A DNA stretch of 64,000 nt from an uncultured Gammaproteobacteria bacterium (GTDB lineage: Bacteria; Pseudomonadota; Gammaproteobacteria; Steroidobacterales; Steroidobacteraceae). Positions 13,335 through 64,000 of this stretch are shown here, in pieces (position 1 is the stretch's first letter; every line of letters begins with the position of its first letter). Made by a program: the position numbers and the translations under genes. The notes under the pieces are model-generated. The model saw only the letters and a program-made list of their open reading frames with translations, was not told the DNA's origin and did not search any database. The stretch is taken from contig CAVVPB010000003.1 in assembly GCA_963749775.1 (NCBI GenBank), forward strand, positions 402,004-466,003, in the 5' to 3' direction.

Positions 13335-13375
13335 CTTGAGTGTTCAATCAAACCATGTCTTGAGTGATCAATCAA
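13335..13375. promoter_or_regulatory. Direct repeat CTTGAGTG(T/A)TCAATCAA x2, 24-bp period, upstream of the SRPBCC gene
   Basis: 13335-13351 and 13359-13375 differ at one position. The second copy contains the TGATCA palindrome. Confidence 0.4.
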
Positions 13376-13444
13376 GTGCGCGCGATGAAACGAATCAGGG
13401 CCCGCAGAAGCAAGGTTTGCAACGTCGTGCAGGCGGCACGATCC

Positions 13445-14600
13445 TCAGGTGCGCTCAAAGCGAGCCACGGTCTCGACATGTTCGGTGAACGGCAAGAAAT
13501 CAAATGCGGCGAGCGCGGCGAGACGCAGCTTGCCCTGTGATATCAACTGCGCGGCGTCGCTGAGGAATGATTCGAGTCCACAGCTCACGTAGACGAAACG
13601 CTCGGGCGGCTGCTCGCATAAATACTGGGTCAGCGCGGGATCTAAACCCTTGCGCGGCGGGTCGGCGATGACCACCTGCGCGCCGGCCGCGGCACCGACG
13701 CGCCGCACCTGCGCAGCCCGGGACGACGGAAACCTTGGCTCGATTCGCCGGGTCGAGCTGCGCGAGTCCGAGTTCCAGCCCTTGTAGAGAGTGCGGGCTG
13801 ACTTCGTTCAATTGGAGATAGCCCGCGCGCCCCAGCACGGACAAGCCGATCGCGCCGACGCCCGCATAGAACTCGGTGACCCGCGCACCCTGCGGAATTT
13901 GCTGCCGCACGTGATCGATGATGGCTTGCGCGATCTCGAGATTGTTTTGCCCGAAGGCACCCGGCGGGTAATGTACCGCCGCTTCGCCGAAGTGCTCGAT
14001 CACGCTGGGCGCTCCGCACCAGTTTTGAAACTCAGGGCCGAGGATGGTGTTGGAGCGCCCGAGATTGGCGTTGAACCACAGGCTATGCAGCTGGCCGCCG
14101 AGGCGTTCGCGGATCAACTCCAGGCACTCGGCCAGCGGCTCAACGGTCTCGCAGTTGGCAACGAGCACCACCTGTGCCGTTTGCGAGCTGCGTTCCACGA
14201 CCACCTGCAGGTATCGGGCGAGTCCCAGGTGGGCGCTGTCCGAGTAGCTGGTCACTCGGGCATCAACCAGGGCGCGCCGAATCACATCAGCGACACGATT
14301 GATGAGGGGGTGTTGAACGCTGCAGTTCGGGATGTGAACCACCCGATGGGTACCCAACTCAAACAGGCCCACCTTCGGCGAGCCGAGCCTGCCACGGATG
14401 GCAAGCCGCGCGCGATGTCGAAATCCGGCGGTCTGCCCGGCAACTACCGACACCTCGGGCAAGCCGTGGACCCGCGCGAGCTCATCGAGCGCGCGGCGCG
14501 CGCTTAACGCAATGCCGCGCTCACCGAAGCGCGGGCATCCTGGGCAGGGCGGGCGATGCGGGCACGACAGCAAAGCTTCCTGGCGCGTGCCCGTGTTCAT
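13445..14600 (-). pseudogene. RumA/TrmA-type SAM-dependent RNA (uracil-5) methyltransferase with one frameshift
   Basis: N-terminal Cys cluster CPHRPPCPGCPRF. SAM motif EFYAGVGAIGL. The conserved C-terminus ..AQVVIADPPRKGLD..FVYVSCG.. is in another frame (ORF 13445-13708). Junction near 13715. Confidence 0.7.
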
Positions 14601-14602
14601 CG

Positions 14603-17224: not shown

Positions 17225-17492
17225 ATGGCGAACATACGTTTTCTTGGCGCCATTGTTGCGGGATTCGCTCTGTGCGGCTGCGCGTCCACGGCTGGGAATG
17301 TAAACTCGCAGTCGCTGGCGAAAAGCGATCCTACTTGCCTCGCCGACACCGGAAGTCGAGCGCCAGGCGTGAAAGGCGATTGTCGGGGAACAGGCCGCTC
17401 ATATACACAATTCGATCTTCTAGAGGACGGGCGAAACCGACGTCGGCGATGCGTTGGCTCATCTGGATCCCTCGATCACGGTGCATCATTAG
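17225..17492 (+). pseudogene. Small lipoprotein with one frameshift (about 17425)
   Basis: AGGAGA-N6-ATG. Lipobox in MANIRFLGAIVAGFALCGC. After ..SYTQFDLLE the plausible tail TGETDVGDALAHLDPSITVHH* continues in another frame (TAG 17490-17492). The listed frame runs on into the convergent amidase gene. Confidence 0.45.
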
Positions 17493-20400: not shown

Positions 20401-20713
20401 CCGCGATGATGCCTGCGACAATCACGACAAACGCGCCGGTGGGTCCACCGATCTGCACCCGGGAGCCGCCCAGCAGTGAGATCAAGAATCCCGCGATCAC
20501 TGCGGTGACCAAACCCTGATTGGGCGATGCGCCACTGGCGATGCCGAGCGCCATGGCAAGCGGCAGCGCCACGATGGCGACCGTCAGCCCGGCAAGCGCA
20601 TCTTTACGCCAGAGCTTGCCAAGCTGTCCTTCGCGCCAAACGATGATGAGCTTGGGGGTAAAGGACGACCAAAATGCGGAGGAACGCGCCTTTGCGGCGA
20701 TGAGATCAGTCAC
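17489..20713 (-). CDS. Single 1074-aa ORF: SulP-family anion permease with STAS domain (20713-19055) joined in frame to a Tat-signal amidase-signature enzyme (19054-17489)
   Basis: SulP part: ..DALAGLTVAIVALPLAMALGIASG.., many TM segments, then the STAS domain ..FRFAGPMFFGVAREML..YIDSSGASALEAF..TFKMALDKVSH. It is followed immediately by MTDADEKSNKTALSRRAVLTLAAGASVGAAAYSA (twin-arginine signal). The amidase part has HAVKDL and GGSSGGAAVALA..DYGGSLRNPA. No stop codon lies between the two parts. Confidence 0.85.
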   Translation of the reverse strand: MTDLIAAKARSSAFWSSFTPKLIIVWREGQLGKLWRKDALAGLTVAIVALPLAMALGIASGASPNQGLVTAVIAGFLISLLGGSRVQIGGPTGAFVVIVAGIIAAHGYAGLVLATLLAGIILIAAGYAGLGRLIRFVPMPVVTGFTAGIAVVIASSQIADFLGLATGKVPAEFIAKWAVYFGALNTISPYTLAVGSATLAMVILLRRFAPQLPAFLIALLVASLAVALLHLPVATVGERFPSMPTGIPAPHMPEASLALIQHLLPSALTIAFLAGLEALLSATVADGMTGYHHRSGQELVGQGVANIASALFGGLPATGAIARTATNIRAGARTPLAGIFHSIFLLIFLLVAGKFIARVPMAALAAILLIVAWGMSEIDRFRSLLRMDAGERALLLLTFGLTVLVDLTVAIGVGVTLASLLFMTRMSETAGLLPEEFSIDDPAQRASLPKGVEVFRFAGPMFFGVAREMLDVLHRSGRTPKIIILRMEHVPYIDSSGASALEAFVRQARGNGTQLILCDLREQPGVFLAKAWSNFAGAERVTTFKMALDKVSHMTDADEKSNKTALSRRAVLTLAAGASVGAAAYSASGQTGAPHRTNELVLMDATSLAKEIHSRKVSCTEVMSAYLDHIERLNSKVNAIVALQDRGALLELARERDNQLARGESMGPLHGFPHAVKDLQAVKGIRTTMGSPILKDFVPSSDGLMVGRLRAAGAIFIGKTNSPEFGLGSHTYNPVYGITRNAYDTARSAGGSSGGAAVALALRMLPVADGSDYGGSLRNPAGWNNVFGFRTSIGRIPNDARDAWLPSMSVTGPMARNVADLAMLLSVQTGFDARAPLSLDGDGSLFQRRLDRNFKGTRIAWCADFQGHTPCEPEVLKVCRQALKAFESLGCSVDEAVPDFDLEAVWQAAIRLRGWQQGASLLAYYNDPAKRALLKPEAVYEVETGLRQSAYDITSASVVRTEWSSAVRRFFERYDFFVVPTAQVFPFDAELHWPREIAGREMQTYHEWMKATLLVTMSGCPALAAPAGFSDHGLPIGIQIIGPNRQDFSCLQLAYAYESAANPASRLPALISRA

Positions 20714-33877: not shown

Positions 33878-36091
33878 ATGAACTCGACACTGAGACTTGC
33901 AATCCTTGCATCGTTAAGCGCGATCGGGCCATTTCTAGCGCAAGAGAGTAGGGCCGCAGATACGGCAGCGCCGGCGGACAGCGACGCGCTCGCGACGATC
34001 GTCGTCACGGCGGAAAAGCGCGAAGAAGCACTCAAGGATGTGCCCATGAGCGTGACCGCCTTGACCGGCAGCAGCCTCGACAAGCTGCAGGACAGAGAAT
34101 TCGCCGACTACGCGGCCCGGGTGCCGGGCCTGTCGCTGGTGAGCGGCGACAGCGGCCTCACCCGCTTGACCTTGCGCGGCCAGAATGCCGGCGGTGACGG
34201 CTCGACGGTGGCTGTTTATTTGGACGAATCGCCGTTCGGATCCAGCACCGCCTTGCTCAACGGTTCCGTCCTCAGTGGCGATTTCGATACCTGGGATCTG
34301 CAACGCATCGAGGTGCTGCGCGGACCGCAAGGCACCTTGTACGGCGCCAATAGCGAAGGCGGTCTTTTGAAGTTTGTCACTGTGGCTCCGGTGCTCGGCA
34401 GCTTCTCCGGCGCCGCCGAAGTAACGGGCGAGAGCGTTGCCCATGGCGGCAATGGCGGCGATGTGCGTGCGGTGCTGAACTTGCCGCTGGGCGACAAGGT
34501 CGCTTTCCGCATCAGCGGATTCGATCAGGATGTCCCCGGCTACATCGACGATCCGTTGAGCGGCCGCAGCGACGTGAACGATGGCCACAAGTACGGCGGC
34601 CGGGCTTCCCTGCTGGCCGCGCCTACGGATGATCTATCCATCCGCTTGACTGCTTCATCGCAGCAATCCAAATACAATGGATCCAACAGCGTCGATATCA
34701 ATCCGGTCACCTTGCAGCCTTCCCATGGCGATCTTACCCAGGAACGTCTTGTGCCCGAGCCGAGCAGTTTCAAGTACGAGAATTACAACGCGACTATCAA
34801 TTGGAATGCCGGACCGTTCAGCATTCTATCGACCACAAGCTACGGAATTTTGAATTCGGATACCGTCAGGGATGCCACCAACGTCCTCCTCCAGGCGACG
34901 CCCTTCCCGGTGACATATGGCGAGGCTCTCGGTTCCGGCGTCGTGCTCGACAACTCGGCAGACCTGCAGAAGTTCACCCAGGAGCTGCGCCTGTCGTCGG
35001 CGGCTTCGGATCGCCTGGAATGGCAAGTCGGCGGGTATTACACGCGTGAAACCGGACTCTTGGATCAGCACCTCAATGCGTTTCGCGGATCCCGGCGGCG
35101 GTTCTCTCGGCAACTTGGAGTTGTTGACACTGGCATCGACTTATAAAGAATGGGCCGGATTCGGCAATCTGACCTACCATTTCAACTCGCAGTTCGATCA
35201 TCCAAGGCGGCGGGCGCTGGTCGAGCAATGAGCAGACTGGCACCGAGACTGTCTCCGGACCCCTCGCAGGGCCCACACCCACCGAATTCAGCACGCCGTC
35301 GAAGGGCCACGTCTTCACCTATTCGCTGGCGCCGCGTTGGCATGTGGATGCGAACACCATGGTGTATGCGACGCCTGGCGACCGGCTTCCGACCGGGCGG
35401 TCCCAACGTGTTGCCGCCTGGCTTACCGGCTGGCGTGCCGCTTGAGTACGGCTCGGACAAGACCACCAACATCGAACTCGGGATTAGGTCGACCCAGCTC
35501 GAGGGTTTGCTGTCCATTGATGTCGCGGCATTCCACATCGATTGGACCAACATTCAGCTCCTCCAAACCTTTAGCGGCTTCACTGTCAATGGCAACGGCG
35601 GCAAGGCACGCAGCCAGGGACTCGAGTGGACCTTTGGATATATGCCGCTCCATGGCCTGACATTGAGCTGGACCGGCGCCTACACCGACGCAAAACTGAC
35701 GGAGCCCGTGCCGGCGCTGCACGGCGATTCCGGTGATCCGCTGCCGTACGCTCCGAAGTGGAGCACCTCGCTCGATGGTGAATACGACTGGGCTGCGTTC
35801 GCGGATTACAAAGGCTTTGTCGGGGGCACCTGGAGCTATGTCGGCACGAGGAGCACTGACTTCGGCAGTTCCGCCGACACCCTCTCGCAGGTAGAGTTGC
35901 CCAGCTACAATACCTACGCGGTTCGCCTCGGCCTCGACAACAATCGTTACCGCATTACGCTGTACGGCAAAAATCTCGGAGACACGCGCGGCATCACCAG
36001 CTATGTGAGCAGCAGTGCGCCGGGCCTTCAGGGCACAATGGGTGTCATTCAGCCGCGAACGATTGGCGTCACACTGTCTGCGAAATTCTAA
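33878..36091 (+). pseudogene. TonB-dependent outer-membrane receptor with three frame disruptions between about 35080 and 35365
   Basis: Signal peptide. Plug ..IVVTAEKREEALKDVPMSVTAL..RGQNAGGDGSTVAVYLDESP..IEVLRGPQGTLYGANSEGG. The barrel ends ..TLSAKF. The conserved path runs frame 2, then frame 3 (..LASTYKEWAGFGNLTYHFNSQFD), then frame 1 (QGGGRWSSNEQ..FTYSLAPRWHVDANTMVYA), then frame 2 (RLATGFRPGGPN..). Confidence 0.85.
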
Positions 36092-51209: not shown

Positions 51210-52679
51210 TTAGCCCAGCGTCACCGGAACAAACATGCGAGCGTCACCGCGTTGAATGAGCAGCGCGATTTGCTTGCTGTGCTCCTGCACCAACTTGCGC
51301 AATTGGGCGACGCTTTCCACCGGAGTTCCGTCGACCGAAAGCACGACATCGCCCGGTTGGATACCCGCGTCGGCGGCTCGGCCTTCCGCGTCTTCGACCA
51401 CGAGGCCGCCAGCGACACCCGCTTGCCGGCGCTCCTCAGGATTTAAGGGACGCAAGGCCAAGCCTAGGCGAGCGGGGGCAGAGTCGCCCGAGGCATCATC
51501 GGCGGAAAGCTGTTTGCCGGCGGTGCCGATGGTTGCGGTCAAGGTCAGGGTTTTGCCGTCGCGCCATACCTCGAGCGGAACCTTGTCACCGGGTGTGGCA
51601 GCACCCACGCGCTGCGATAGTTGGCCGGCGTCCACAATGGCAGCGCCGTTGAACTTGAGGATCACATCGCCCACCTTGATGCCGGCTTGCGCCGCCGCCG
51701 AGTCGGGCACAACCTTGGCAACGAGGCCTCCACCGGGTGTCTTTAATTTGAACGAATCGGCCAACGATTGATCCACCGTTTGCACCTCGACGCCCAATCG
51801 CGCATGCACCACTTTGCCGGTCTTCACGATTTGGTCTTTGATCTGCACGGCGAGATTGATCGGGATGGCGAATGACACGCCTTGGTAGCCGCCCGAATTG
51901 CTATAGATCTGGGAGTTAATGCCCACAACCGAGCCGTTGGCATCAAATAGCGGGCCGCCGGAATTGCCGGGGTTGACTGCCGCATCCGTCTGAATGAAGG
52001 GAACATAGCCGTCGCCGGGCAGGGAGCGGCCCTTCGCACTGACGATTCCGGCGGTGGCGGTTTCCTCGAGGCCGAAGGGTTCGCCAATCGCAAGGACGTA
52101 GTCGCCAACCCCGATTTGATCCGAATCGCCCAGGCTGACCACGGGCAGATTGTGGCCGTCGATCTTCAGCACGGCAATGTCGCTGCTTTTATCGGCTCCC
52201 AATACTTTGGCTTTGAATTCGCGATGGTCGGATAGCTTGACAGTGACCTCCTTCGCGCCGTCCACGACATGCGCATTGGTCAGCACCAGGCCGTCGGAAG
52301 AAATCAAAAATCCGGAGCCCTGTGCGTGCTGCACCCCATGCGGCCGGGGCATCGGCAGTCCGCGGAAGAACTGTCCCAGCGGACCGTCGTCATCGCCGTT
52401 GGGCACTCCTTGTCTAGACTCTTGGGTAGCGGTGTTCATGGGACCCGCGGTCGTGATGCCGACAACCGCCGCCTGATTGCGTGCCACGATTGCGCGATAG
52501 TTCGGCGCTGTGATCAAGGGAATGGGCTGCGGTGGCGTGTGACTCGAATCGGCCACGGCCGGTGCCGCTGTTGTCGAGGCCGCGGTCGACAATAATGCGT
52601 GGGCGGAAAGGCCCGTGGCGGTACCGACGGCGAGCAAGCCTGCTGCCGACCATACCAGGTGTCTGTTGCGAAGCTGCAT
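51210..52679 (-). CDS. HtrA/DegP/DegQ-family periplasmic serine protease with two PDZ domains
   Basis: AGGAG-N5-ATG at 52679. ..GSGFLISSDGLVLTNAHVV..DIAVLKI..TDAAVNPGNSGGPL.. Two PDZ-like repeats (..GIKVGDVILKFNG.., ..GIQPGDVVLSVDG..). Confidence 0.9.
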   Translation of the reverse strand: MQLRNRHLVWSAAGLLAVGTATGLSAHALLSTAASTTAAPAVADSSHTPPQPIPLITAPNYRAIVARNQAAVVGITTAGPMNTATQESRQGVPNGDDDGPLGQFFRGLPMPRPHGVQHAQGSGFLISSDGLVLTNAHVVDGAKEVTVKLSDHREFKAKVLGADKSSDIAVLKIDGHNLPVVSLGDSDQIGVGDYVLAIGEPFGLEETATAGIVSAKGRSLPGDGYVPFIQTDAAVNPGNSGGPLFDANGSVVGINSQIYSNSGGYQGVSFAIPINLAVQIKDQIVKTGKVVHARLGVEVQTVDQSLADSFKLKTPGGGLVAKVVPDSAAAQAGIKVGDVILKFNGAAIVDAGQLSQRVGAATPGDKVPLEVWRDGKTLTLTATIGTAGKQLSADDASGDSAPARLGLALRPLNPEERRQAGVAGGLVVEDAEGRAADAGIQPGDVVLSVDGTPVESVAQLRKLVQEHSKQIALLIQRGDARMFVPVTLG

Positions 52680-52749
52680 GTGATCTCCTGTTAAATGCCA
52701 TGGAGCCATTGCTCCGAAGGCAGCTTCACATGACTTGCTTAAGTGAGTC

Positions 52750-54054
52750 TTAAGACGCGAGAGGAAAGCCCACGGTGACGTGCAGACCGCCTCCCGCTGC
52801 CTCCTGGAGGCTTACGTGTGCGCCGTGGCGTTGTGCGATGGCCCTGACAATCGCAAGCCCAAGCCCGGTACCGCTTTCCTGCGCCGCAGCGCGTCGATAA
52901 AAGCGATCGAATACCCGCTCCCGGTCCGCCGGGGCGATTCCGGGGCCCGTGTCCATGACTTCGAGCGTCGCTTCGCCGGGCGCAATCGCACACCTGACCT
53001 GAACCGATCCCTGGGTCGGCGTGTAGCGAACGGCGTTGTCGACCAGGTTGCGCACCAGCGTGCGCAGGCCTTCGCGATCGCCGCGAACCAGAATATTCGG
53101 CGGCGAGTCGAGACTAAGATCGATGCCGCGCGCTCGGGCCAGATCGTGGGTATCGGTGATGCCCTCGGCCGCTGCGGCCGACAAGTCCACGACCTCAAAG
53201 TCGGGCACGGTCTCCTGGGGCTCGCTGCGCGCCAGCGCCAGCAACTGCTCGACCAGGTGAATCGCGCGTTCGACCGCTGCGCCAAGACGCCCTCGCGCCT
53301 CGATCCGCGCCGCCTCATCCGGCGCACGATCCAGCAATTGCAGCTGTAGCCGCAGCGCCGTGAGCGGCGAGCGCAGCTCGTGTGCGGCATCGGATATGAA
53401 GGCGCGTTGCGCCGAGAAGGACTGCTGCAGGCGCGCCAGCAGCCGGTTCAGCTCGCTGACCAGCGGCTCGATCTCGCGCGGCAGATTGTCGGTCCCCAGC
53501 GCCGCCAGGCTGCGTACATCGCGCCGCTGAACCTCGGCGGTGATGTCGCGCAACGGCAGCAAGCCGCGATGGACGATCCATGCAGCCGCGATAATCATGA
53601 TCGGCAACAGCAGAATCGTCGGTATCACGACCCTTGCCGCGGCCGCCCGCGCCAAGCTTTCACGGACCCGCAGCGGCTGGGCGATCTGAATCACGCCCTC
53701 GGCCGTCTGCAATCCATAAGCCCGCCAGGGCTCTCCGCGCAAGGATAAGTCCGCGTAACCTAACACGGTCAGATTGATCATCGGCAAGCCGGGCCGCGAC
53801 AGATAAGTGCGTGCGCCGAAGACATCCCAGATTTGGACCACAAAGTCACTGTCACCCTGGTCGGGGGGCACCTCGATGCGCGGCGCGACGGAAATTTGGC
53901 CGCGCAGGGAGAGCGCCATTTGACGCAGCTGATAGTCGAACAGCGCCGACGTTTCGTCTAATACGCGCCGGTAAGTAACCGCGGCCGCGAGCAGCGAGAT
54001 CAGCGCGACGAGCACTATCAAGGCAACCAGCAGTTGGGTGCGGATGGATTTCAT
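52750..54054 (-). CDS. Sensor histidine kinase (QseC/PhoQ-like two-TM topology)
   Basis: ATG 54054 overlaps the regulator stop (ATGA). TM1 LLVALIVLVALISLLAAAV. H-box SDAAHELRSPLTAL. Also NLVDNAVRYT, DTGPGI and GTGLGLAIV. Confidence 0.85.
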   Translation of the reverse strand: MKSIRTQLLVALIVLVALISLLAAAVTYRRVLDETSALFDYQLRQMALSLRGQISVAPRIEVPPDQGDSDFVVQIWDVFGARTYLSRPGLPMINLTVLGYADLSLRGEPWRAYGLQTAEGVIQIAQPLRVRESLARAAAARVVIPTILLLPIMIIAAAWIVHRGLLPLRDITAEVQRRDVRSLAALGTDNLPREIEPLVSELNRLLARLQQSFSAQRAFISDAAHELRSPLTALRLQLQLLDRAPDEAARIEARGRLGAAVERAIHLVEQLLALARSEPQETVPDFEVVDLSAAAAEGITDTHDLARARGIDLSLDSPPNILVRGDREGLRTLVRNLVDNAVRYTPTQGSVQVRCAIAPGEATLEVMDTGPGIAPADRERVFDRFYRRAAAQESGTGLGLAIVRAIAQRHGAHVSLQEAAGGGLHVTVGFPLAS

Positions 54055-54707
54055 TTGGGAATGAAGTACCCGACGCCGCGCAACGTCTGAATGGTCTCGC
54101 TGCCGAGCTTGCGTCGCAAACCGTGAATGTAGACCTCGATGGCATTGCTGCCGATCTGTTCGTCCCAACCGTACAGGCGGTCCTCCAACTGCAGTCGAGA
54201 CAACACCGCTCCCGGGCGCTGCAGCAACGCCTCCAACACCGCGAATTCGTGGGCCGACAAATTCACCGCAACTCCGCTGCGTTCAACCGTGTGCGACACC
54301 GGATCAAGGCGCAGCTCGCCGTGCTGGATGCTGGAATCGCCGCGTCCGGCGGCGCGACGCAGAACCGAGCGCATGCGCGCCATGACTTCGTCAAGGTCGA
54401 AAGGCTTGACGATGTAGTCATCGGCGCCTGCATCGAGGCCCGCCACACGATGCTGAATCTCATCGCGCGCGGTGACAATGATCACCGGCGTTAGATTGCC
54501 GCGTTTGCGCAGATCCCGCAGAACCTCTATCCCGTCGCGCTGTGGCAATCCCAGATCGAGCAGCACCACGTCGAAGGCCGATGTCTGCAGCGCATGGCTT
54601 GCGCTATTGCCGTCGCGCATCCAATCGACGGCGAAGCCGCCCTGGCGCAGCGCCGTTTGCAGGCCTTGCGCAATCATGGCGTCGTCTTCAACGAGCAACA
54701 CACGCAT
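54051..54707 (-). CDS. OmpR/PhoB-family response regulator
   Basis: MRVLLVEDD, VVLLDLGLPQRDG, IIVTARD, YIVKPF and the winged helix ..LSAHEFAVLEALL..IEVYIHGLRRKL. Confidence 0.9.
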   Translation of the reverse strand: MRVLLVEDDAMIAQGLQTALRQGGFAVDWMRDGNSASHALQTSAFDVVLLDLGLPQRDGIEVLRDLRKRGNLTPVIIVTARDEIQHRVAGLDAGADDYIVKPFDLDEVMARMRSVLRRAAGRGDSSIQHGELRLDPVSHTVERSGVAVNLSAHEFAVLEALLQRPGAVLSRLQLEDRLYGWDEQIGSNAIEVYIHGLRRKLGSETIQTLRGVGYFIPK

Positions 54708-56885: not shown

Positions 56886-56894
56886 CGTGAAGGG

Positions 56895-56916
56895 CGCCGG
56901 CCCGAGAATGCCGGCG
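56895..56916 (+). terminator. Hairpin CGCCGGC-N8-GCCGGCG followed by TTAAAATCT
   Basis: Read directly, 10 nt after the stop at 56885. Confidence 0.45.
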
Positions 56917-57209
56917 TTAAAATCTCGCTTAAAGTCCGCCGGGCGGCGGCGTAAAGCGCGGCCTTAAGTTAAGCCAAACAAAAAACGGCGGACTTCGTGC
57001 GCTGCGTTGCATCGCATCTGCGAAGTAGTTCTCATCTTGCGTGTTTATCCCTCCGCAGTGCTCATTCTGCGCGCGCCAGCGCACGCAAATGTGACCCAAA
57101 GCATGTCGAAAACCCCTGATTTGCCCGACCCTTATTGTGTTAAGCGAAACACCAAAATGGGTCGGGTGCGGATGCTAGTCGCAACGCAACAAAGCCGGGT
57201 TCGGGGTAA

Positions 57210-59261
57210 TTGCGGTACGGGACTCCTATGATGCCGAAAAGTCTGAGAAAACATGAGGTTGCCGAACCGGAGCCAACCGAGCGGCCACCGCTTGAGGCGG
57301 TCAAAAAGCAGAAGCTCAGCGTGCTTTTGGTGACCGAAGACGATGAGCTGTGGCCGCTGATCGGCACGGATTTGAGCGGCGCCTTTGCCCTCAAGCAGCT
57401 CGATTCCATTGATGAACTGATCAACTCCACGCCGCCCGGACAGGCCGCCATCGTCCTGTGGGACGCACGTAACAACTCCGACCATGCCGCGGTCCTCTCG
57501 CGCCTGCATTTGCATTCGTCCCGCTGTGCCATCATCGCGCTGGACGATGCTCTCAGCGCCGGCGCCTGGACCATCCTGACCCAGCAGCGGCAAGTAGTCG
57601 CCCACGTGGCTGTGCCCCTAACAGGCAATGCGTTGGCCGGCGCCCTCGATAGCGCACACGAAGAGGTGAACTCGCGCATCGCGCTTCTCGGCGACGGCGC
57701 AGAGCCCGTGCTCGCCGCGTCGGGGCCTCCGAGCAAGCCGTGGCTCGTGCCGGTCATTATCGGTGGCGTGCTCGTGGCTGCCGTGGTTGCCTACCTGCTG
57801 ACGCGTCGTGGCACTGACGTAAGCCCACCGACTACGGCCGCAGGCACCGCTCATACGGTCCCCGCCGTGCAAGCACCCGGCAAATCCCTGGCGGAGGTCG
57901 ACGAGAAAGTCGATGCACTCATCCAGAAAGCTCAGCAGGCGATGCTCGATCGGCATTTCATAGATCCGGTATCCGGCAGCGCCCTATCGCTTTATCGGGA
58001 AGTGCTGATCGTTGATCCCGACAATGGCGAAGCGCGGCAGGGCCTGCAGCGCCTATCCGAAATACTGATTGCGCGCGTGCAATCGGCGCTCGATGACCGC
58101 AAATTTGATGTCGCTTTGCAGTTCCTGGAAACGGCCCGCAGTATCGACGCCAACGATCAGCGTCTTTATGCACTCGATGAAAAAATTGCGAACCTGCGCG
58201 CGGAATTGGGTCCGGCGCAGATTCTCGCGGCGCTGAACGCGCAGAATTTTGATCGCGCGACCCAGCTGATTGACGAGGCAGGCCGTACCAAGGCCCTGCC
58301 GCTCGCGAAATTGACCCAGCTGCGCGATGAAGTGCACCGGCGACGCGACGAATTCGAAGTCGCCCGCCTGCTCAAGCTCGTCGATGCGCGCGTGCAGCAG
58401 GACCATTTGATTGATCCGCGCAACGACAGCGCCGTCTACTATCTCGATCAGGCGAAGCAGGCGGGCGCGAGTGCGCCGGCGGTGCAGGCGCAGGCCCAGG
58501 ATCTGACCAAACGCATGGCGCAAATGGCGCGTGCGGCCATCGACCAGCATCGTTTCAGCGATGCGGATCGCTTGATCGTGGAGCTGCGCGGCATCGGCGC
58601 GCCGGCTGCGGCGGCAACTTTGCAACGTGAGCTAAGCGCTGCACGCAATCAGCCGGCGCAAAAGCCCGAGCTTCCGCAATATCTGGAACTCGCGCAGGCG
58701 CGCCTCGCCCAGGGCAAATTGACCGAGCCCGACGGCGACAATGCACTGTTCTACGTGAATCAATTGCGCACAGCCGATCCGAAGAGCAGCGGGCTCTCGC
58801 AAATATCCGGCGCACTGCAGGCGCAGATCGTCGACCGCGCGCGTGCCGCGCTCGATGCCGGCGACTTGGAAAAATCCGAGGCGCTGGCGCAATCGGCAGG
58901 CGGACTTGGCGGTTCACCGGACCTGGAGGCGTTGAACGACCGCATACGTCAAAAGAAAGTAGCGGCCGGCGACGTACCTCAGTTGCCCGAGCAGTCCCTG
59001 ACGCGGTTGAACAAGCTCGACGTCCAGTATCCTCCGCGCGCCCTGCAGGACAATGTCGAGGGTTGGGTGGAAGTCGCGTACATCGTCAAGGCGGATGGTT
59101 CGGTCACTAATGTCAAGGTAGTGAATGCCGCGCCTCCCAAGGTCTTTGACGCCTCGGCTTCCCGAGCGGTGAGCCGACTGCGGTATCAGCCGGTGGTGCA
59201 AGGCGGCAAGCCGATGGCGATCGGCACCGAGGTGCGTATCGTCTATCGCGTTCCTAAATAG
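57210..59261 (+). CDS. Receiver-like domain / TM / repeated helical periplasmic modules / TonB C-terminal domain protein
   Basis: N-terminus KLSVLLVTEDDELW..AAIVLWDARN.. (receiver-like). TM WLVPVIIGGVLVAAVVAYLL. At least three modules of about 75 aa (..LDRHFIDPVSGSALSLYREVL.., ..QDHLIDPRNDSAVYYLDQA.., ..GKLTEPDGDNALFYVNQL..). TonB_C ..YPPRALQDNVEGWVEVAYIVKADGSVTNVKVV... The start is uncertain (57210 or 57228). Confidence 0.75.
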   Translation: MRYGTPMMPKSLRKHEVAEPEPTERPPLEAVKKQKLSVLLVTEDDELWPLIGTDLSGAFALKQLDSIDELINSTPPGQAAIVLWDARNNSDHAAVLSRLHLHSSRCAIIALDDALSAGAWTILTQQRQVVAHVAVPLTGNALAGALDSAHEEVNSRIALLGDGAEPVLAASGPPSKPWLVPVIIGGVLVAAVVAYLLTRRGTDVSPPTTAAGTAHTVPAVQAPGKSLAEVDEKVDALIQKAQQAMLDRHFIDPVSGSALSLYREVLIVDPDNGEARQGLQRLSEILIARVQSALDDRKFDVALQFLETARSIDANDQRLYALDEKIANLRAELGPAQILAALNAQNFDRATQLIDEAGRTKALPLAKLTQLRDEVHRRRDEFEVARLLKLVDARVQQDHLIDPRNDSAVYYLDQAKQAGASAPAVQAQAQDLTKRMAQMARAAIDQHRFSDADRLIVELRGIGAPAAAATLQRELSAARNQPAQKPELPQYLELAQARLAQGKLTEPDGDNALFYVNQLRTADPKSSGLSQISGALQAQIVDRARAALDAGDLEKSEALAQSAGGLGGSPDLEALNDRIRQKKVAAGDVPQLPEQSLTRLNKLDVQYPPRALQDNVEGWVEVAYIVKADGSVTNVKVVNAAPPKVFDASASRAVSRLRYQPVVQGGKPMAIGTEVRIVYRVPK

Positions 59262-59273
59262 CATGGCGGCGAG

Positions 59274-60626
59274 ATGAACACTCAAACTGTAACGACGGCG
59301 ACAACCATAACCACGACAGTGCTTGCCGTGCCGACGGCGGCCGAGCGCAGCCGGGGCACAGTGCTGTGCCTCATCGTGCACGATGAATTGGAATTGCGGC
59401 TTCGGCTCGCGGGCCTGGTGCGCCGGGCCATGCCGAAAATCGATGCGGACACGGTCACCCGCGCGGGGTTTGATGCGCTATCGATCGAGCGTCTTCAGGC
59501 GTATGTCGCCGTGATGTTCATCGTCGAATTCAGCCCGCCGGACGCGGCAGCGGCATCCTTGGCCGCTCTCAAGCGATTGCACGAGCAGGCGCCCAATCTA
59601 CCGATATTCGTATTCGCGCGCGGCGGCAACGAGCGAAGCGCCGCACGCGCGATGAAATTGGGCGCCAGCGATTACTGGCCAATCCATTCTGTGATCGTCG
59701 GGGAGTTATGCAGCGCGCTGCAGCCTCTCATCGAGCAGGCCCAATCGCCGCCCCTCGCGGCGAGTACCGCGGCGGATCGATGGCGGCAGCCGGAGATTGC
59801 CGGCTATACATTGTTGAAGAAGATCGCACAGTCGGCTGCGGCGGGCGTTTATCTCGCCCGCAACGACGAGTTCGCCCAACCCGTGGCTCTGAAAGTCGAG
59901 GCGATCAAGGGACCGCAGATCGTTTCCGAGGCCGATAGGGAGCGGTTCACCAAAGAGTGCGAGATTTTGTCGAAGCTGAATCACCGATCGATTGCGAACG
60001 TACTCGACTTTGGCACGACCGACGACTACCTGTTTCTGGCCCTGGAATACTTTCCCTGCGGCAGCTTGCGCGAACGGCTAAAACATCCCGTGAGTGAGGC
60101 GGATGCCGTCAATTACGCGCATCAGATCGGCGAAGCCCTGCAGATCGTGCATGCCGCCCGCGTGGTACACCGCGATTTGAAGCCGTCGAATCTCATGTTG
60201 ACCAACGAAAATCGCTTGGTGCTGATTGACTTCGGCTCGGCGCGAACGCAATTCGCATCGACCGACCTGGCGCGTTCCGGCGATTGCACCGGTACTCCGT
60301 ACTATGTCTGCCCGGAGCAAATTGATGACCGCGAACCCGATGCCCGGGGCGATCTCTACAGCCTCGGCGTGGTGTTGTTCGAAATGCTCTCAGGCAACCT
60401 ACCCTTTACCGGCAAGACCCTCGCCGACATCCTGGCGGCGCATCGTTCGACACCCGTGCCACGCTTGCCCGAAAGCCTGGCGCTCTATCAGCCGATCATC
60501 GATCGCTTGCTGGCAAAAGATCCGCAGGGGCGATACGCATCGGCCGCTGAGTTTCTCGACGCCTTGGACGCGTTGCGCGCGGAATCGATCGCGCGCAAGA
60601 CCAACAAATCACCGCGGAGTCCTTGA
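59274..60626 (+). CDS. Degenerate receiver-like domain fused to a Hanks-type Ser/Thr protein kinase
   Basis: Kinase motifs VALKV, HRDLKPSNLM, LIDFGSA and GTPYYVCPEQ. N-terminus VLCLIVHDELEL..VAVMFIVEFSPPD..PIFVFARGG..GASDYWPI. 12 nt after the previous stop. Confidence 0.8.
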   Translation: MNTQTVTTATTITTTVLAVPTAAERSRGTVLCLIVHDELELRLRLAGLVRRAMPKIDADTVTRAGFDALSIERLQAYVAVMFIVEFSPPDAAAASLAALKRLHEQAPNLPIFVFARGGNERSAARAMKLGASDYWPIHSVIVGELCSALQPLIEQAQSPPLAASTAADRWRQPEIAGYTLLKKIAQSAAAGVYLARNDEFAQPVALKVEAIKGPQIVSEADRERFTKECEILSKLNHRSIANVLDFGTTDDYLFLALEYFPCGSLRERLKHPVSEADAVNYAHQIGEALQIVHAARVVHRDLKPSNLMLTNENRLVLIDFGSARTQFASTDLARSGDCTGTPYYVCPEQIDDREPDARGDLYSLGVVLFEMLSGNLPFTGKTLADILAAHRSTPVPRLPESLALYQPIIDRLLAKDPQGRYASAAEFLDALDALRAESIARKTNKSPRSP

Positions 60627-60629
60627 TTC

Positions 60630-62825
60630 ATGAATCCTCGTCAAACCAGAGCCTTATTTCCCCGTCTAACCAGCGGAGGTCTCGGGGTGCTGGTCGTCAT
60701 TCTCTCATTTAGCTTCGTCGCGATCGTGCTGATACCGGGGCTGGAACTCGCCAGCGAATTGGCTGAAAGCAGCGTCGCCCTCAAGTTTGCGGGAGAGCAA
60801 CAACGCAATCCGGCGCTCATCCGCGCCTCGCTCGAGTCGATGCGCGATCGCTTGGTCAATCGCGGCTACATCCAAGAAGCTTTGGATCAACTGCGCGACT
60901 CAACCGCCAAGCTCGACGCCGGGCTGCGCGCAATGAACGCGCCACGGCCGGCGAGCTGGTTTGCCCTGGCGGGCGACACCAGCGCCAAGGGCGAGCCGGT
61001 TGCGGGAAAGCATGCCGCGGTTTTGCGCGAAGTTTGGTCCGCGGAACTGGAATCGTTGCAGCCGCTTCTCAATTTCAAGGGGGTGCCGTACCAGGATAAC
61101 GAAGCGACCGGCACGGTCCTCAACGAGAGCGGCAAGCAGCTGGAGCGCGACGTCACCGCGGCGCTGCGCGTCGGCCGGCGCGCCATACCCCAGCTTGACA
61201 GCGAGCTGACGGCAATTGTCGGCGACCTACAGACCGGCAACGCCCGTTCCGCCACCGAGCTGCGGCTCGTCATGCTCACGGGCCTGCTCATCGCCTTGGT
61301 GTTGGGGACACTGGTGTCGACGTTGCTGCTCGCGCGGCGGCGGCAAGACGCCTCGCTGCGCGAAGCACGCCAGCAGACCGCGGACATTTTGCGCACCGTC
61401 AAAGATGGTTTGTTCCTGCTCGATGAACACCTGGTGATCGGCGCCTCGTATTCCAGTGCGCTGGAATCGCTGTTTCAGCGTACTGACTTTGCCGGCCTGC
61501 CATTCGAAAGCTTGCTGAAAGGCGTCGTGTCTGAGAAGACTTTGGCAACCGCGCTGAAATTCGTCGGCATCCTGTGGTCGGAGCGTACCAAGGAGAACTT
61601 GGTCAAGTCGATTAATCCGCTCGGCGAGGTCGAGGTCAATTTCGACACGGGACCAGGCAGAGTCTCGACGCGCTATCTGCAATTCGATTTCCATCGAGTA
61701 CGCGTGGACGGCAAGATCACGCACGTACTGGTGGCGGTGTCGGATGTAAGCGCGCGCGTGGATCTCGCCCGGGAACTGCAGAGCTCACAAACGCAGGCGC
61801 AGGCACAGGTCGATACGCTATTGGGGATCCTGCACGTCGACCCCGCGCAGCTTGCGGCATTTCTAAACGACTCCAACGCCGCGATGAAAATGATCAACGC
61901 GGTGCTGCGCGAGCCGGCACGCGAGGAATCCGCCTTCCGCAAGAAATTGGACACCCTGTTTCGCCAGGTTCACTCGGTCAAGGGCGAGGCCGCGGCCTTG
62001 GGGCTGTCCTCGATCGAAAGCCGCGCGCATTCCTTCGAGGATGATTTGAAGCATCTGCGCGAAAAGTCGGATTTGTCCGGCAACGATTTCCTGCCGCTGG
62101 TCATCAAGCTCGATGATTTGTTGACCCACTTGCAATCCGTGGGCGATCTGGTATCGCGTCTTGCGCGCCTGCACGTGGCGGCGACGGGCAATGATTCGCA
62201 TACGGATACGGCGGTGATCGAGCATGGGGAAATGCTCCCGAAGCCCGACAACACCATGGGCGCCATGCTGCAGCAGCTGACCGCCCGCGTGGCGAGTGAG
62301 AATAACAAAGAGGCAGTGCTGCAATGCCTAGGGTTCGACACCGTGCCGGATGCCTATCGGCGCATCGTGAAAGACATCTCCGTTCAGGCGGTACGCAACG
62401 CGATCGTTCATGGCATTGAGCCCACGACCGAGCGGCTCAACGCCGGAAAACCCGCGCAAGGCATGCTTAAGCTGATATTCCAGGATGTCGGCGAGGCGGG
62501 CTACAAATTCATCGCCGAAGACGACGGCCAGGGTCTGTCGACCGATAAGATCAAACATGCTGCTTTGAAGAAAGGATTTATCACCCCAGAAAAAGCGCTG
62601 ACCTTGGACGCGAAGCAGGTATTTTCCCTGCTATTCCAGCCGGGGTTCTCCACCGTCGAGACCGCCACCAAGGACGCGGGGCGCGGCGTGGGGATGAATT
62701 TGATGGCCGGGCTGATGCAGCAGATCGGCGGCAAAGTTTCGGTGGCCACCGTGCCGGGAAAATTTACTAGGCTCACACTGAGCCTGCCGCCCGCTAAGCG
62801 CGCCGGAAATACGGAAGCCGCCTAA
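60630..62825 (+). CDS. Membrane-anchored CheA-type histidine kinase: 2 TM with helical periplasmic domain, PAS-like, Hpt, CheA-like HATPase, no CheW-like P5 domain
   Basis: TM1 LGVLVVILSFSFVAIVLIPGL. TM2 LVMLTGLLIALVLGTLVSTLLLA. Hpt FRQVHSVKGEAAALGL. CheA-style N box VRNAIVHGIE..AGKPAQGMLKL. Also EDDGQGL, PGFST and GRGVGMN. The protein ends 12 aa after ..RLTLSLP. Confidence 0.8.
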   Translation: MNPRQTRALFPRLTSGGLGVLVVILSFSFVAIVLIPGLELASELAESSVALKFAGEQQRNPALIRASLESMRDRLVNRGYIQEALDQLRDSTAKLDAGLRAMNAPRPASWFALAGDTSAKGEPVAGKHAAVLREVWSAELESLQPLLNFKGVPYQDNEATGTVLNESGKQLERDVTAALRVGRRAIPQLDSELTAIVGDLQTGNARSATELRLVMLTGLLIALVLGTLVSTLLLARRRQDASLREARQQTADILRTVKDGLFLLDEHLVIGASYSSALESLFQRTDFAGLPFESLLKGVVSEKTLATALKFVGILWSERTKENLVKSINPLGEVEVNFDTGPGRVSTRYLQFDFHRVRVDGKITHVLVAVSDVSARVDLARELQSSQTQAQAQVDTLLGILHVDPAQLAAFLNDSNAAMKMINAVLREPAREESAFRKKLDTLFRQVHSVKGEAAALGLSSIESRAHSFEDDLKHLREKSDLSGNDFLPLVIKLDDLLTHLQSVGDLVSRLARLHVAATGNDSHTDTAVIEHGEMLPKPDNTMGAMLQQLTARVASENNKEAVLQCLGFDTVPDAYRRIVKDISVQAVRNAIVHGIEPTTERLNAGKPAQGMLKLIFQDVGEAGYKFIAEDDGQGLSTDKIKHAALKKGFITPEKALTLDAKQVFSLLFQPGFSTVETATKDAGRGVGMNLMAGLMQQIGGKVSVATVPGKFTRLTLSLPPAKRAGNTEAA

Positions 62826-63217
62826 TGGATATCGAGGCCGGTTCCAAGGCTTCCCTGAAGCTTATGATCGTTGATGATTCCAATATCATTCGTCGTCGTA
62901 TTGAACGCTCTCAGCAAATCGCCCGCCTAGAGGTGGTCGGTGCCGCGAGCAACGGCCGGGCGGCCGTGGAAATGTTCCTGCGCACTCAGCCGGATGTCGT
63001 GACGATGGATCTGACCATGCCCGAGATGGACGGAATCGAATGCGTCAAGGAGTTGGTCTCCATCAATTCAAACGTGTTGATCTTGGTCGTTTCGGCTCTT
63101 GCCGATAAGGCGACAGCCGTCGAAGCGATAGAAAATGGCGCAAACGGGTTTCTCTGCAAGCCTTTCACAGATCGCCAGCTCAACGATGCGTTAGAAGAGC
63201 TGCTGTCGGAGGCTTGA
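62825..63217 (+). CDS. cheY: CheY-like single-domain response regulator
   Basis: LMIVDDS, VVTMDLTMPEMDG, LVVSAL and FLCKPF. TAATG overlap with the kinase gene. Confidence 0.9.
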   Translation: MDIEAGSKASLKLMIVDDSNIIRRRIERSQQIARLEVVGAASNGRAAVEMFLRTQPDVVTMDLTMPEMDGIECVKELVSINSNVLILVVSALADKATAVEAIENGANGFLCKPFTDRQLNDALEELLSEA

Positions 63218-63218
63218 G

Positions 63219-63665
63219 ATGTTCAAGGAAGCAGAAATTCGCACATTCGTTGAGGGAACGACCAATTATTTCGAGACCTCGGCGCAGCAGTCGGCCACCG
63301 TCGGATCGCCCTATCTTGTGACGGACGGCAAGCCCGGCGCTTACGAGTACACCGGCGTCATCGGCATCACCGGCGCGCGCAAGGGCATCGTTTATTTCAC
63401 CGCTCCGCGCGGCATGCTCACCGTATTGCTGATGCGCATGCAGGAAACCGACACCAGCGACGAAAACATCAAGGATCTGGTTGGCGAAGTGGCCAACACC
63501 ATTTCCGGCAATGCGCGCCGGGATTTCGGCAAGAACTTCGTCATTTCGGTCCCGGTGGTCATTGCGCACGATTTGGAAAAGGTGACCACGCCGTATTCGC
63601 GCTCCTTTGTGATTCCCATCAACTGGCGGACCCACTCCGCCAAACTCGTGGTCTGCCTGGAGTAA
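63219..63665 (+). CDS. cheX: CheX/CheC-type CheY-P phosphatase
   Basis: ..VIGITGARKGIVYF.. and the phosphatase-type motif LVGEVANTISGNARRDFGKNFVISVP (E-x2-N ... P). Starts 1 nt after the cheY stop. Confidence 0.75.
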   Translation: MFKEAEIRTFVEGTTNYFETSAQQSATVGSPYLVTDGKPGAYEYTGVIGITGARKGIVYFTAPRGMLTVLLMRMQETDTSDENIKDLVGEVANTISGNARRDFGKNFVISVPVVIAHDLEKVTTPYSRSFVIPINWRTHSAKLVVCLE

Positions 63666-63675: not shown

Positions 63676-64000
63676 CTATTTTCCGTCGACGGAAAAGGCC
63701 AACAGCACGTTAACCCCGTTGCTGCCGGTGCGCGCCGCGCCATTGAAGCCGGACATCGTGTAGACCATGCCGCCGGCAATAGTCGGCCCCATGCCGTCGA
63801 TCCCGCCGCCAGGCTGAGCCGGATGGCCGTTGACGGTGCTATAGGTCTGAGCGGTGGTGCTGAACTCCCATACAATTCTGCCGCTTAAGGCATCGTAGGC
63901 TCGAAACCAGCCATCCAGGGTGCCGGAGAAGACAATCTCGGGCATGACCGCCGGCGCCGCTGATTGCGCCCGCACGCAGGCGCCCTTGGTGTAGTCCTTC
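63676..64000 (-). CDS. 3' part of a PQQ-dependent dehydrogenase / beta-propeller gene (continues right of the window)
   Basis: ..IVFSGTLDGWFRAYDALSGRIVWEFST..GGMVYTMSGF..LLAFSVDGK*. The ORF is open to the window edge. Confidence 0.6.
   Translation of the reverse strand, partial: KDYTKGACVRAQSAAPAVMPEIVFSGTLDGWFRAYDALSGRIVWEFSTTAQTYSTVNGHPAQPGGGIDGMGPTIAGGMVYTMSGFNGAARTGSNGVNVLLAFSVDGK
63679..63696. terminator. 18-bp perfect palindrome TTTTCCGTCGACGGAAAA at the convergent cheX / PQQ gene junction
   Basis: Read directly. It overlaps the last codons of the minus-strand gene and has A/T runs on both sides, so it could act in both directions. Confidence 0.45.

Follow-up and report, generated by a model that had tools for sequence, protein, structure and literature searches.

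A putative self-contained phosphorelay built round a CheA-derived membrane sensor kinase in an uncultured Steroidobacteraceae bacterium

CheA histidine kinases are defined by four core domains. In the survey of Berry, Andrianova & Zhulin (2023), Hpt, H-kinase_dim, HATPase_c and CheW are present in 100% of 13,673 CheAs, and the authors stress that CheA has no sensor domain of its own (PMC10782961). The system analysed here is a five-gene operon located in a stretch of 64,000 nucleotides (nt), hereafter the window, from an uncultured soil gammaproteobacterium of the Steroidobacteraceae (contig CAVVPB010000003.1, positions 402,004 to 466,003). It encodes a TonB-like protein, a Ser/Thr kinase, a membrane sensor kinase, a CheY and a CheX. 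The operon shares the H-x-x-K-G motif of the histidine phosphotransfer (Hpt) domain, and the CheY and CheX chemistry, with the canonical CheA-CheW-MCP (methyl-accepting chemotaxis protein) pathways that feature CheX, as in Thermotoga maritima and Borrelia burgdorferi; the catalytic domain of its sensor kinase is 30-34% identical to canonical CheA P4, with target-normalised TM-scores up to 0.86. It differs from these pathways because P2, P3 and P5 domains, CheW, MCP, CheR and CheB are all missing, and because the sensor, a transmembrane (TM) helical bundle plus a PAS-like domain, is part of the kinase polypeptide. Judged from its sequence and a structural model, the kinase is CheA-derived, and is not a CheA by the four-domain definition. 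It is to be seen as a self-contained sensor kinase, not as a Che core minus its partners.

The kinase resembles also class I TM sensor kinases whose inputs are periplasmic four-helix bundles or PAS domains, such as NarX, WalK and the engineered LOV-kinases. Common to both are the topology TM-sensor-TM-PAS-phospho-His helical bundle-catalytic domain, inputs that vary across the family, and a cognate response regulator encoded immediately 3', and Foldseek aligns WalK and LOV-HK structures to the whole kinase model. In contrast to class I kinases, the phospho-His is placed on a monomeric Hpt bundle where those have a dimeric DHp/HisKA domain, ATP is bound by a catalytic domain of CheA (class II) type, and the regulator has no output domain and is accompanied by a CheX phosphatase. 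In the literature searched, neither the PAS-Hpt-P4 kinase family nor its CheY/CheX trio nor a receiver-TonB_C protein was found described, in line with an earlier note on this DNA, made from the sequence alone, in which the pathway was not recognised as a described one. The system is regarded as a two-component phosphorelay, unusual in the class of its kinase and novel in the architecture of its receiver output, not as categorically new chemistry.

Open reading frame (ORF) calls confirm the operon as first delineated, with five plus-strand genes spanning 57210-63665 and intergenic gaps of 12, 3, -1 and 1 nt:

57210..59261, plus strand: gene 1, receiver-TM-TPR-like-TonB_C protein, 683 amino acids (aa); from ORF, Pfam and AlphaFold2 (AF2) model
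59274..60626, plus strand: gene 2, soluble pseudo-receiver plus Hanks-type Ser/Thr kinase, 450 aa; from ORF and Pfam
60630..62825, plus strand: gene 3, membrane sensor kinase of Hpt plus CheA-P4 type, 731 aa; from ORF, Pfam and AF2
62825..63217, plus strand: gene 4, single-domain CheY-type response regulator, 130 aa; from ORF and Pfam
63219..63665, plus strand: gene 5, predicted CheY-P phosphatase of the CheX family, 148 aa; from ORF and Pfam

The start of gene 4 and the stop of gene 3 overlap by 1 nt. The close spacing had been taken to imply co-translation; it suggests translational coupling at most. The domain assignments made at first reading (TonB_C, Pkinase, Hpt/HATPase_c, Response_reg, CheX) are all supported by Pfam. 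Public annotations of identical proteins feature different starts for two genes: gene 1 starts at Met7 (57228; 677 aa) rather than at 57210, and gene 3 at an internal GTG (60687; 712 aa) rather than at 60630. For gene 3 the alignment favours the ATG at 60630, because relatives align across the full 731-736 aa.

Four modules are distinguished in the gene 3 kinase:

60660..61397, plus strand: sensor module made of TM1, extracytoplasmic helical bundle and TM2, aa 11-256; from hydropathy and AF2
61407..61745, plus strand: cytoplasmic PAS-like alpha/beta domain, aa 260-372; from AF2 topology and Foldseek
61842..62183, plus strand: Hpt four-helix bundle, aa 405-518, with phospho-acceptor His448 in H-x-x-K-G; from Pfam and matches to CheA P1 and CheA3 P1
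62253..62792, plus strand: CheA-P4-type catalytic domain, aa 542-721; from PDB search and Foldseek

The AF2 model, built from 46 diverse family members (26-48% identity), has a mean predicted local distance difference test score (pLDDT) of 87. Pfam detects Hpt at aa 408-502 (E 7.4e-8) and HATPase_c at aa 586-721 (E 1.3e-9). The ATP-binding domain matches solved T. maritima CheA P4 structures at E 6e-27, and in Foldseek comparisons with CheA P4 the catalytic domain reaches target-normalised TM-scores of 0.78-0.86. H448, K451 and G452, as well as N590, D631/G633/G635 and G684/G686/G688 of the N, G1 and G2 boxes, are invariant in the 46 sequences. Neither Pfam nor the AF2 model reveals P2, P3 or P5/CheW domains in gene 3. 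The CheW (P5) Pfam domain is missing also in the ten relatives scanned, and H-kinase_dim (P3) has no Pfam match in gene 3 or the same number of relatives, in a search below HHpred-level sensitivity. The absence of P3 follows also from the model, because the Hpt and catalytic domains are joined by a disordered linker of 24 residues (519-541, pLDDT about 50), which leaves no space for a 60-aa hairpin. The chain ends at residue 731, 10 residues past the catalytic domain. Of the core domains of CheA (PMC10782961), Hpt (P1) and P4 are hence present, P3 and P5 absent, and the TM-flanked helical bundle and PAS-like domain form a sensor which CheA does not have. The label "CheA-type" given to gene 3 in the earlier note stands therefore for the Hpt and catalytic domains, and fails for the lack of P3 and P5 and for the resident TM sensor and PAS-like domain.

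The two TM segments are located by hydropathy at about aa 17-42 and 210-235, and the sensor helices of the model span residues 11-57, 60-76, 82-103, 124-147 and 166-256. A PilJ Pfam domain sits at the equivalent position in gene 3 relatives, and the sensor bundle is a diverged PilJ-type four-helix bundle. The inputs found at this position across relatives vary, and are PilJ-type bundles, a weak TarH-like match, HAMP, or unassigned. The PAS-like domain, for which the global Foldseek matches are PAS/LOV kinases, is the most family-specific part of the protein: it carries the motif TV[KR][ED]G[LF]FLLD, and G260, L263 and S275 are invariant in the family alignment. The family is large, with 1,285 representatives of 50%-identity clusters at E<1e-30. 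The best 150 representatives are mostly proteins of about 700 aa matching much or all of gene 3, the remainder being shorter fragments. In NCBIfam, CheA models rank at the top for gene 3, yet score far under the cut-off, and no family-level name or model exists for either the gene 3 kinase or the TonB-like gene 1. Automatic JGI/KEGG annotation labels gene 3 "sensor kinase CheA".

The surroundings of the kinase were analysed at 80 loci from species-representative genomes, retrieved by family alignment, with the PAS-like motif serving as search pattern. ORFs were called at each locus and searched with the five window proteins, and all neighbours were clustered. MCP and CheW were sought by phmmer with CheW and MCP signalling-hairpin probes; matches were found neither in the 64-kb window nor in 79 of the 80 loci. 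The sole matching locus serves as positive control: in L063 (4217-9010, minus strand), from a Propionivibrio metagenome-assembled genome (MAG), a conventional che cluster (MCP, CheA-like, CheW) adjoins the kinase, CheY and CheX genes on the opposite strand. Precomputed Pfam annotations of L001, L082 and L083 hold no MCP or CheW. L001, a relative of 85% identity lying on a 1.6-Mb contig, allows the search to be extended past the window edge, and neither gene occurs in the following 9 kb, which encode a PQQ (pyrroloquinoline quinone) dehydrogenase and then unrelated metabolism. Pfam annotation of the window between 27.6 and 56.9 kb reveals no che, flagellar or pilus genes, and genes for pili or flagella are not among the conserved neighbours at the 80 loci. 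The earlier note had reported the lack of all these genes near the operon, and the statement holds, for MCP and CheW also beyond the window. The MCP plus CheW pair, expected in a chemosensory cluster or its neighbourhood, is therefore not found here.

Gene 4 (Response_reg, E 8.4e-27) features the Asp-Asp pair, acceptor Asp, Thr/Ser and Lys of CheY-type single-domain response regulators, as D17, D18, D62, S90, K112 and P113 are kept in 78/78 sequences. Gene 5 matches CheX at E 4.9e-20 and 71.8 bits, against a cut-off of 27, and carries the D/S-x3-E-x2-N motif of the family: the active site D86-x3-E90-x2-N93 and P112 are kept in 82/82 sequences. Both proteins thus have their full set of catalytic residues. 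CheX is found in 73 of the 80 loci, and its presence suggests that the gene 3 kinase, as CheA, has no phosphatase activity of its own.

Gene 1 is a composite protein, resulting from the association of four regions:

57315..57689, plus strand: cytoplasmic receiver-fold domain, aa 36-160; from AF2, Foldseek and profile search against PDB
57741..57809, plus strand: single TM helix, aa about 178-200; from hydropathy, helix 180-199 in the model
57888..58967, plus strand: periplasmic all-helical TPR/Sel1-like repeat region, aa 227-586; from AF2 helices
59007..59249, plus strand: TonB C-terminal domain, aa 600-680, with a Y607-P608 "YP" motif; from Pfam and Foldseek

In the AF2 model (pLDDT 76) the first region has a (beta-alpha)5 topology, and DctD and 3kcn receivers match it in Foldseek at target-normalised TM-scores of 0.70-0.77. 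Solved receiver domains rank first when an N-terminal profile of 30 homologues is compared to PDB (E 5.5e-8), which bears out the receiver-like nature attributed to this N-terminus. Asp85 aligns with the acceptor Asp of CheY, and is invariant (28/28 and 30/30 sequences) at 22-60% identity. The acidic pocket is made of Asp44 and Asp45, a pair mostly kept among homologues. The equivalents of Thr87 and Lys109, which normally couple receiver phosphorylation to conformational change, are missing. At the Lys109-equivalent position Val, Ile or Leu prevail, Lys being found in only 3/33 sequences, and the following Pro is kept in 25/33. Fold and acceptor Asp of a receiver are hence present, the Thr/Ser plus Lys switch is not. 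The gene 1 N-terminus is best taken as an atypical receiver, the phosphorylation of which is plausible. In five loci (L013, L014, L039, L067, L070; about 13100-14960) the TonB_C gene is located 3' of CheX and not 5' of the kinase, and in three of these the receiver retains the canonical Lys-Pro. This sub-lineage looks like a less degenerate, possibly ancestral state.

The C-terminal domain (CTD) of gene 1 is matched by Pfam TonB_C at aa 606-680 (E 1.4e-16), and superimposes on the CTD of Pseudomonas aeruginosa TonB (6i97_D) with a target-normalised TM-score of 0.90 and a root-mean-square deviation of 1.2 A. The Y of the YP motif is found in 31/33 sequences, the P in 32/33. The repeat region matches TPR proteins in Foldseek at E 1e-4 to 1e-3, and TPR_2 is among the precomputed Pfam domains of some homologues. 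In the homologue alignment the TM stretch features no conserved His, no SHLS-type motif and no invariant residue. No ExbB or ExbD genes are found near the operon in L001, L082 and L083; gene 1 may be coupled to a distant ExbBD. Of the traits of a TonB energy transducer, gene 1 therefore exhibits the CTD with its YP motif, and lacks the SHLS His, the Pro-rich spacer and the linkage to exbBD.

Compared to TonB of the ExbB-ExbD-TonB system, gene 1 has in common the CTD fold (that of the FoxA-bound P. aeruginosa TonB CTD), the YP motif and the N-in bitopic topology. It differs for a cytoplasmic receiver domain of 160 residues, a TM helix without the conserved His/SHLS, a TPR-like spacer replacing the Pro-rich rod, and a genetic tie to a histidine kinase with no adjacent exbBD. 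The nearest functional analogues are GltJ and GltG of the Myxococcus xanthus gliding machinery. GltJ is organized as ZnR-GYF-TM-TonB-CTD and GltG as FHA-FHA-TM-TonB-CTD; their cytoplasmic signalling domains regulate an envelope-spanning assembly, and in GltJ a cytoplasmic switch governs assembly of the envelope-spanning complex (PMC11135422, PMC11761067). The relation to gene 1 was compared by the shared TonB CTD only. Gene 1 has a two-component receiver fold, its spacer is a folded TPR-like array whereas that of GltJ/GltG is disordered, and in contrast to the Agl-Glt system no Agl/Glt, TolQR or ExbBD genes lie near the operon.

Gene 2 encodes a kinase devoid of hydrophobic TM segments by hydropathy. 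The Pkinase domain (aa 178-422; E 2.7e-45, 155 bits) includes the VAIK Lys, HRDLKxxN, DFG and APE-like Glu of Hanks-type kinases: K207, D301, K303, N306 and E348 are kept in 10/10 sequences, and D319-F320-G321 is invariant. The kinase domain is accordingly predicted to be catalytically intact. Upstream of it a further receiver fold is found:

59355..59753, plus strand: N-terminal pseudo-receiver of gene 2, aa about 28-160; from profile search against PDB, hhalign and alignment

Here again the receiver-like N-terminus proposed at first reading is supported, as receivers rank first among PDB matches (E 3.3e-6), and hhalign sets the domain in register with CheY. The N-terminal domains of genes 1 and 2 are similar to each other (hhalign E 2.4e-5), and JGI names some gene 2 homologues "NarL/FixJ family response regulator". 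The match holds at the level of fold; the acceptor Asp is replaced by Glu85 in 8/10 sequences, the window included, Asp being found only in L008 and L021, the two most divergent. This domain is called a pseudo-receiver because Glu occupies the acceptor site and the Thr and Lys switch residues are lost. The earlier note had proposed both N-termini as additional acceptors or docking modules. The proposal is plausible for gene 1, where Asp85 is kept, whereas the Glu of gene 2 leaves to its N-terminus a docking or pseudo-receiver role, which the sequence indicates it can serve, and not that of an additional acceptor.

In fusions of a receiver or pseudo-receiver to a Ser/Thr kinase, and in systems of cross-talk between His kinases and Ser/Thr kinases such as M. 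xanthus Esp, a single genetic module likewise unites His-Asp with Ser/Thr phosphorylation, and an N-terminal receiver fold regulates the Hanks kinase. Gene 2 differs from these because its receiver, with Glu at the acceptor site, is unable to take a phosphoryl group there, and because the histidine kinase of the operon is of the Hpt/P4 type.

The five genes do not have the same distribution. The trio kinase-CheY-CheX is complete, in this order, in 72 of the 80 loci; among the eight loci without the full trio are three contig truncations and one frameshifted assembly. The hosts lie in the Gamma- and Betaproteobacteria and further afield, and comprise Steroidobacteraceae, Lysobacterales, Cellvibrio, Psychrobacter, Moraxella, Neisseria, Kingella, Methylotenera and Rhodocyclaceae; MAGs of Acidobacteriota, Verrucomicrobiota and Vulcanimicrobiota are also among them. 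Thirty-three loci have the TonB_C gene, mostly directly 5' of the kinase and in five 3' of CheX, and 10, window counted, have the Ser/Thr kinase gene. In a neighbour-joining tree built from the cytoplasmic portion of gene 3 and its relatives, TonB_C-positive loci make up one clade of Steroidobacteraceae/Lysobacterales type, every member of which has the gene, and the loci with the Ser/Thr kinase form one sub-clade nested in it. The nesting denotes that the operon was assembled stepwise: the receiver-TonB_C gene was added to the trio, and the pseudo-receiver-Ser/Thr kinase gene to the resulting set, each having been recruited once. The trio is ancient and widespread, and the five-gene set is a lineage-specific elaboration.

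The complete set is found again in 9 further species-level genomes and on 2 metagenome contigs, where identity is 38-85% and the flanks are unrelated. Two divergent TonB_C homologues (54-55% identity), hosted by long metagenome contigs, lie in the same five-gene arrangement between entirely different flanks, and the picture is alike in L001. Neighbourhood analysis, suggested earlier as a check of the gene set, thus reveals a conserved unit, one that was built in steps and not in a single invention. No conserved neighbour beyond the five genes emerged from the clustering of neighbouring ORFs in the 80 loci, the remaining neighbours being lineage-specific transporters, ABC ATPases and SBP_bac_3 proteins.

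Variants of the layout have been identified in some species. In L006 (6499-12202) the order is Ser/Thr kinase-TonB_C-sensor kinase, instead of the usual TonB_C-Ser/Thr kinase-sensor kinase, and the TonB_C gene appears split into several ORFs, maybe by a frameshift or an assembly error. A periplasmic binding protein of the SBP_bac_3 family adjoins the kinase in Psychrobacter and Neisseriaceae. In seven Psychrobacter loci (L046, L048, L050, L052, L058, L061, L068; about 8600-13500) the SBP_bac_3 gene is directly 5' of the kinase, and two tandem CheX paralogues follow CheY. The Psychrobacter arrangement suggests a binding-protein-dependent input to the trio.

Taken together, the data may be accommodated in one picture, for and against which the balance seems to us about even. 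The relay would be built round the CheA-derived membrane sensor kinase and need neither chemoreceptor nor CheW, phosphoryl groups passing from His448 to CheY Asp62 and being reset by CheX, with the receiver-TonB-like protein as acceptor and output and the Ser/Thr kinase docked to the relay. A periplasmic or envelope signal would alter autophosphorylation of His448 in gene 3. The phosphoryl group would be transferred to Asp62 of CheY and, in the TonB_C lineage, also to Asp85 of gene 1. CheX would rapidly dephosphorylate CheY-P, so that CheY could act as a fast-resetting branch or phosphate sink setting the phosphate supply to the membrane-bound receiver. Phosphorylation or dimerisation of the gene 1 receiver would be transmitted via the single TM helix, and the output would be an altered contact between the periplasmic TPR/TonB-CTD arm and either a TonB-box protein of the outer membrane or the cell wall. 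The Ser/Thr kinase would use its pseudo-receiver to dock on Hpt or a partner receiver, adding a slower Ser/Thr-phosphorylation branch in the youngest sub-clade. Independence from MCP and CheW is supported by the missing P5, by the lack of neighbouring MCP/CheW genes, and by inputs that vary as in ordinary sensor kinases. The role of the gene 1 receiver as acceptor would fit the invariance of Asp85 at such divergence and the Lys-Pro kept by distant members. Functional linkage of the five genes is supported by the occurrence of the TonB_C gene on either side of the trio, and by the Ser/Thr kinase remaining linked despite the order change in L006.

Several points weigh against this picture. Transfer from the Hpt domain to any of the three receiver folds is something we infer, and the gene 1 receiver, having no Thr87 and Lys109 equivalents, may never be phosphorylated. 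Conservation of the single-domain CheY extends far past that of its TonB-like partner, so that the true output may in every case be CheY and not gene 1. No outer-membrane partner is encoded in cis, and the signal through gene 1 may run inside-out or outside-in. The loci with four or five genes are known exclusively from MAGs of uncultured bacteria, and the validation of the CheW and MCP probes is the match in L063.

A fully inside-out pathway is put forward tentatively, as a scheme we would sooner doubt than accept. The kinase would phosphorylate the gene 1 receiver and so move the TPR/TonB-CTD arm onto or away from a TonB-box protein of the outer membrane; a contact across the envelope would thereby be gated directly by His-Asp signalling, with neither transcription nor an ExbBD motor. 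CheY and CheX would be a kinetic phosphate sink and the pseudo-receiver Ser/Thr kinase a slower second layer, and PAS-Hpt-P4 kinases would represent a class of "one-protein chemosensory" kinases that is widespread, independent of chemoreceptors and so far unrecognised. Rather unlikely, in our judgement, is the reverse situation, in which gene 1 is the input: its CTD/TPR arm would be an outside-in co-sensor monitoring the state of an outer-membrane receptor or of peptidoglycan, and would act on the kinase either laterally, through the periplasmic bundle, or from the receiver fold to the kinase cytoplasmic domains, leaving CheY-P as sole output. CheY is universally conserved with the kinase and the TonB-like gene is clade-specific, the gene 1 receiver is devoid of the Thr/Lys switch residues, SBP_bac_3 is set beside the kinase in other lineages instead, as is typical of co-sensors, and in the TonB_C-associated clade the sensor bundle departs from the PilJ consensus. 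All this is consistent with a co-sensor, for which, however, a cytoplasmic receiver fold would be needless, and the invariant Asp85 and the mostly kept acidic pair argue for Mg2+/phosphate binding. An output on motility or behaviour is similarly improbable. The trio would form a minimal module of taxis-like kind, and its CheY-P would bind a surface or motility apparatus encoded elsewhere, type IV pili or a flagellar motor, and be quickly reset by CheX, the TonB-like protein and the Ser/Thr kinase being mere accessory modulators or scaffolds. A single-domain CheY with a dedicated phosphatase, here with all catalytic residues kept, is a hallmark of fast behavioural circuits, and kinase inputs are of chemoreceptor type (PilJ, TarH-like). 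Many hosts, among them Psychrobacter, Moraxella, Kingella and Neisseria, are not known to be flagellated and typically bear pili, which counts in the same direction. But genes for pili or flagella are not among the conserved neighbours at the 80 loci, no adaptation enzyme (CheR/CheB) is found, and the retention of the TonB-like gene throughout its clade is left unexplained.

Two further explanations fare far worse. A canonical chemosensory pathway, in which gene 3 is a CheA coupling to MCPs and CheW at another locus, would agree with the automatic JGI/KEGG label and with the CheA-like Hpt and P4-type domains; it is essentially excluded because gene 3 has no P5 domain. P5/CheW and P3, both missing in gene 3, are found in every CheA surveyed (PMC10782961), gene 3 has a TM sensor of its own, and MCP/CheW are lacking in the window and in 79 of the 80 loci. 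Chance adjacency of genes 1 and 2 to a functionally unrelated trio is very improbable. The trio does function without them in most taxa; on the other hand, throughout one clade of 33 loci the TonB-like gene adjoins it, in either of two positions and over an identity range of 22-85%, none of the 10 members of the nested sub-clade lacks the Ser/Thr kinase, even with the order change of L006, the five genes stay together while flanks vary, and genes 1 and 2 both carry receiver folds, the cognate partner domain of an Hpt kinase.

The operon is bounded as follows:

56886..57209, plus strand: upstream non-coding region, 324 bp, putative promoter/operator; from conserved blocks and inverted repeat
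63679..63696, no strand: 18-bp perfect palindrome TTTTCCGTCGACGGAAAA, within the final six codons (FSVDGK) of the gene for the convergent PQQ dehydrogenase

The 324-bp gap and the convergent gene reported in the earlier note are both real. The gap is a probable promoter/operator region, on the evidence of two blocks which align in L001-L004 (relatives of 57-85% protein identity): one at 57020-57039, GCGAAGTAGTTCTCATCTTG, and one at 57087-57125, starting with AAATGTGACCCAAAGCATGTCG. An inverted repeat with 14-nt arms (57124-57137/57153-57166) is located just 5' of the gene 1 start codon. One conserved block holds a TGTGA half-site, reminiscent of CRP/Clp operators. Scans of the upstream region against Rfam and for sigma-70 consensus promoters gave zero matches, and a terminator scan gave a count not above that in shuffled sequence. 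The convergent ORF (63676-63975, minus strand), ending in ...FSVDGK, encodes the C-terminus of a PQQ dehydrogenase, the complete gene of which is visible directly downstream in L001. The palindrome, taken earlier as an operon boundary, does exist; being coding and not intergenic, and lying outside the operon, it was discarded as a candidate terminator or operator.

The part of the window 5' of the operon hosts genes of peptide and beta-lactamase-family catabolism, DUF1800/DUF1501, DegP and an OmpR-type two-component system. A DegP/HtrA-type protease, a QseC/PhoQ-like kinase and an OmpR-type regulator are encoded at 51210-54707 (minus strand), 2.5-6 kb before the start of the operon. L001 has kept the genes for this kinase and this regulator, but none such flank the operon in L082 and L083; no evidence linking the three genes to the operon was found. 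A link of this DegP/HtrA gene to the turnover of CheX, of the kind reported in Borrelia, was considered and dropped, the protease gene being 4.5 kb away, on the other strand and not conserved in L082/L083. At 33878-36091 (plus strand) a 422-aa ORF with the Plug domain of TonB-dependent receptors ends at a stop at 35147-35149, beyond which the frame continues as a 313-aa ORF without Pfam match. The combined length is typical of a TonB-dependent receptor, and the region may be an interrupted gene, a pseudogene or an assembly error. At 17489-20713 (minus strand) a 1074-aa ORF joins a SulP sulfate permease, STAS and a C-terminal amidase domain in an unusual transporter-enzyme fusion.

The gene 3 family challenges the textbook rule by which CheA-type kinases are sensorless and always need CheW and chemoreceptors, as in it the Hpt/P4 core is re-used as an ordinary membrane sensor kinase. 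The family is widespread, with hundreds of 50%-identity clusters, yet uncharacterised, and its hosts include genera of which isolates have been cultured, namely Psychrobacter, Neisseria, Kingella, Moraxella and Parathalassolituus among others. Routine mis-annotation of its members as "CheA" inflates chemotaxis predictions in non-motile bacteria and metagenomes. A receiver fused across the membrane to a TonB CTD would be a new response-regulator output, and possibly a direct route from His-Asp signalling to the outer membrane. The nested phylogeny provides a natural series for studying how signalling pathways accrete components.

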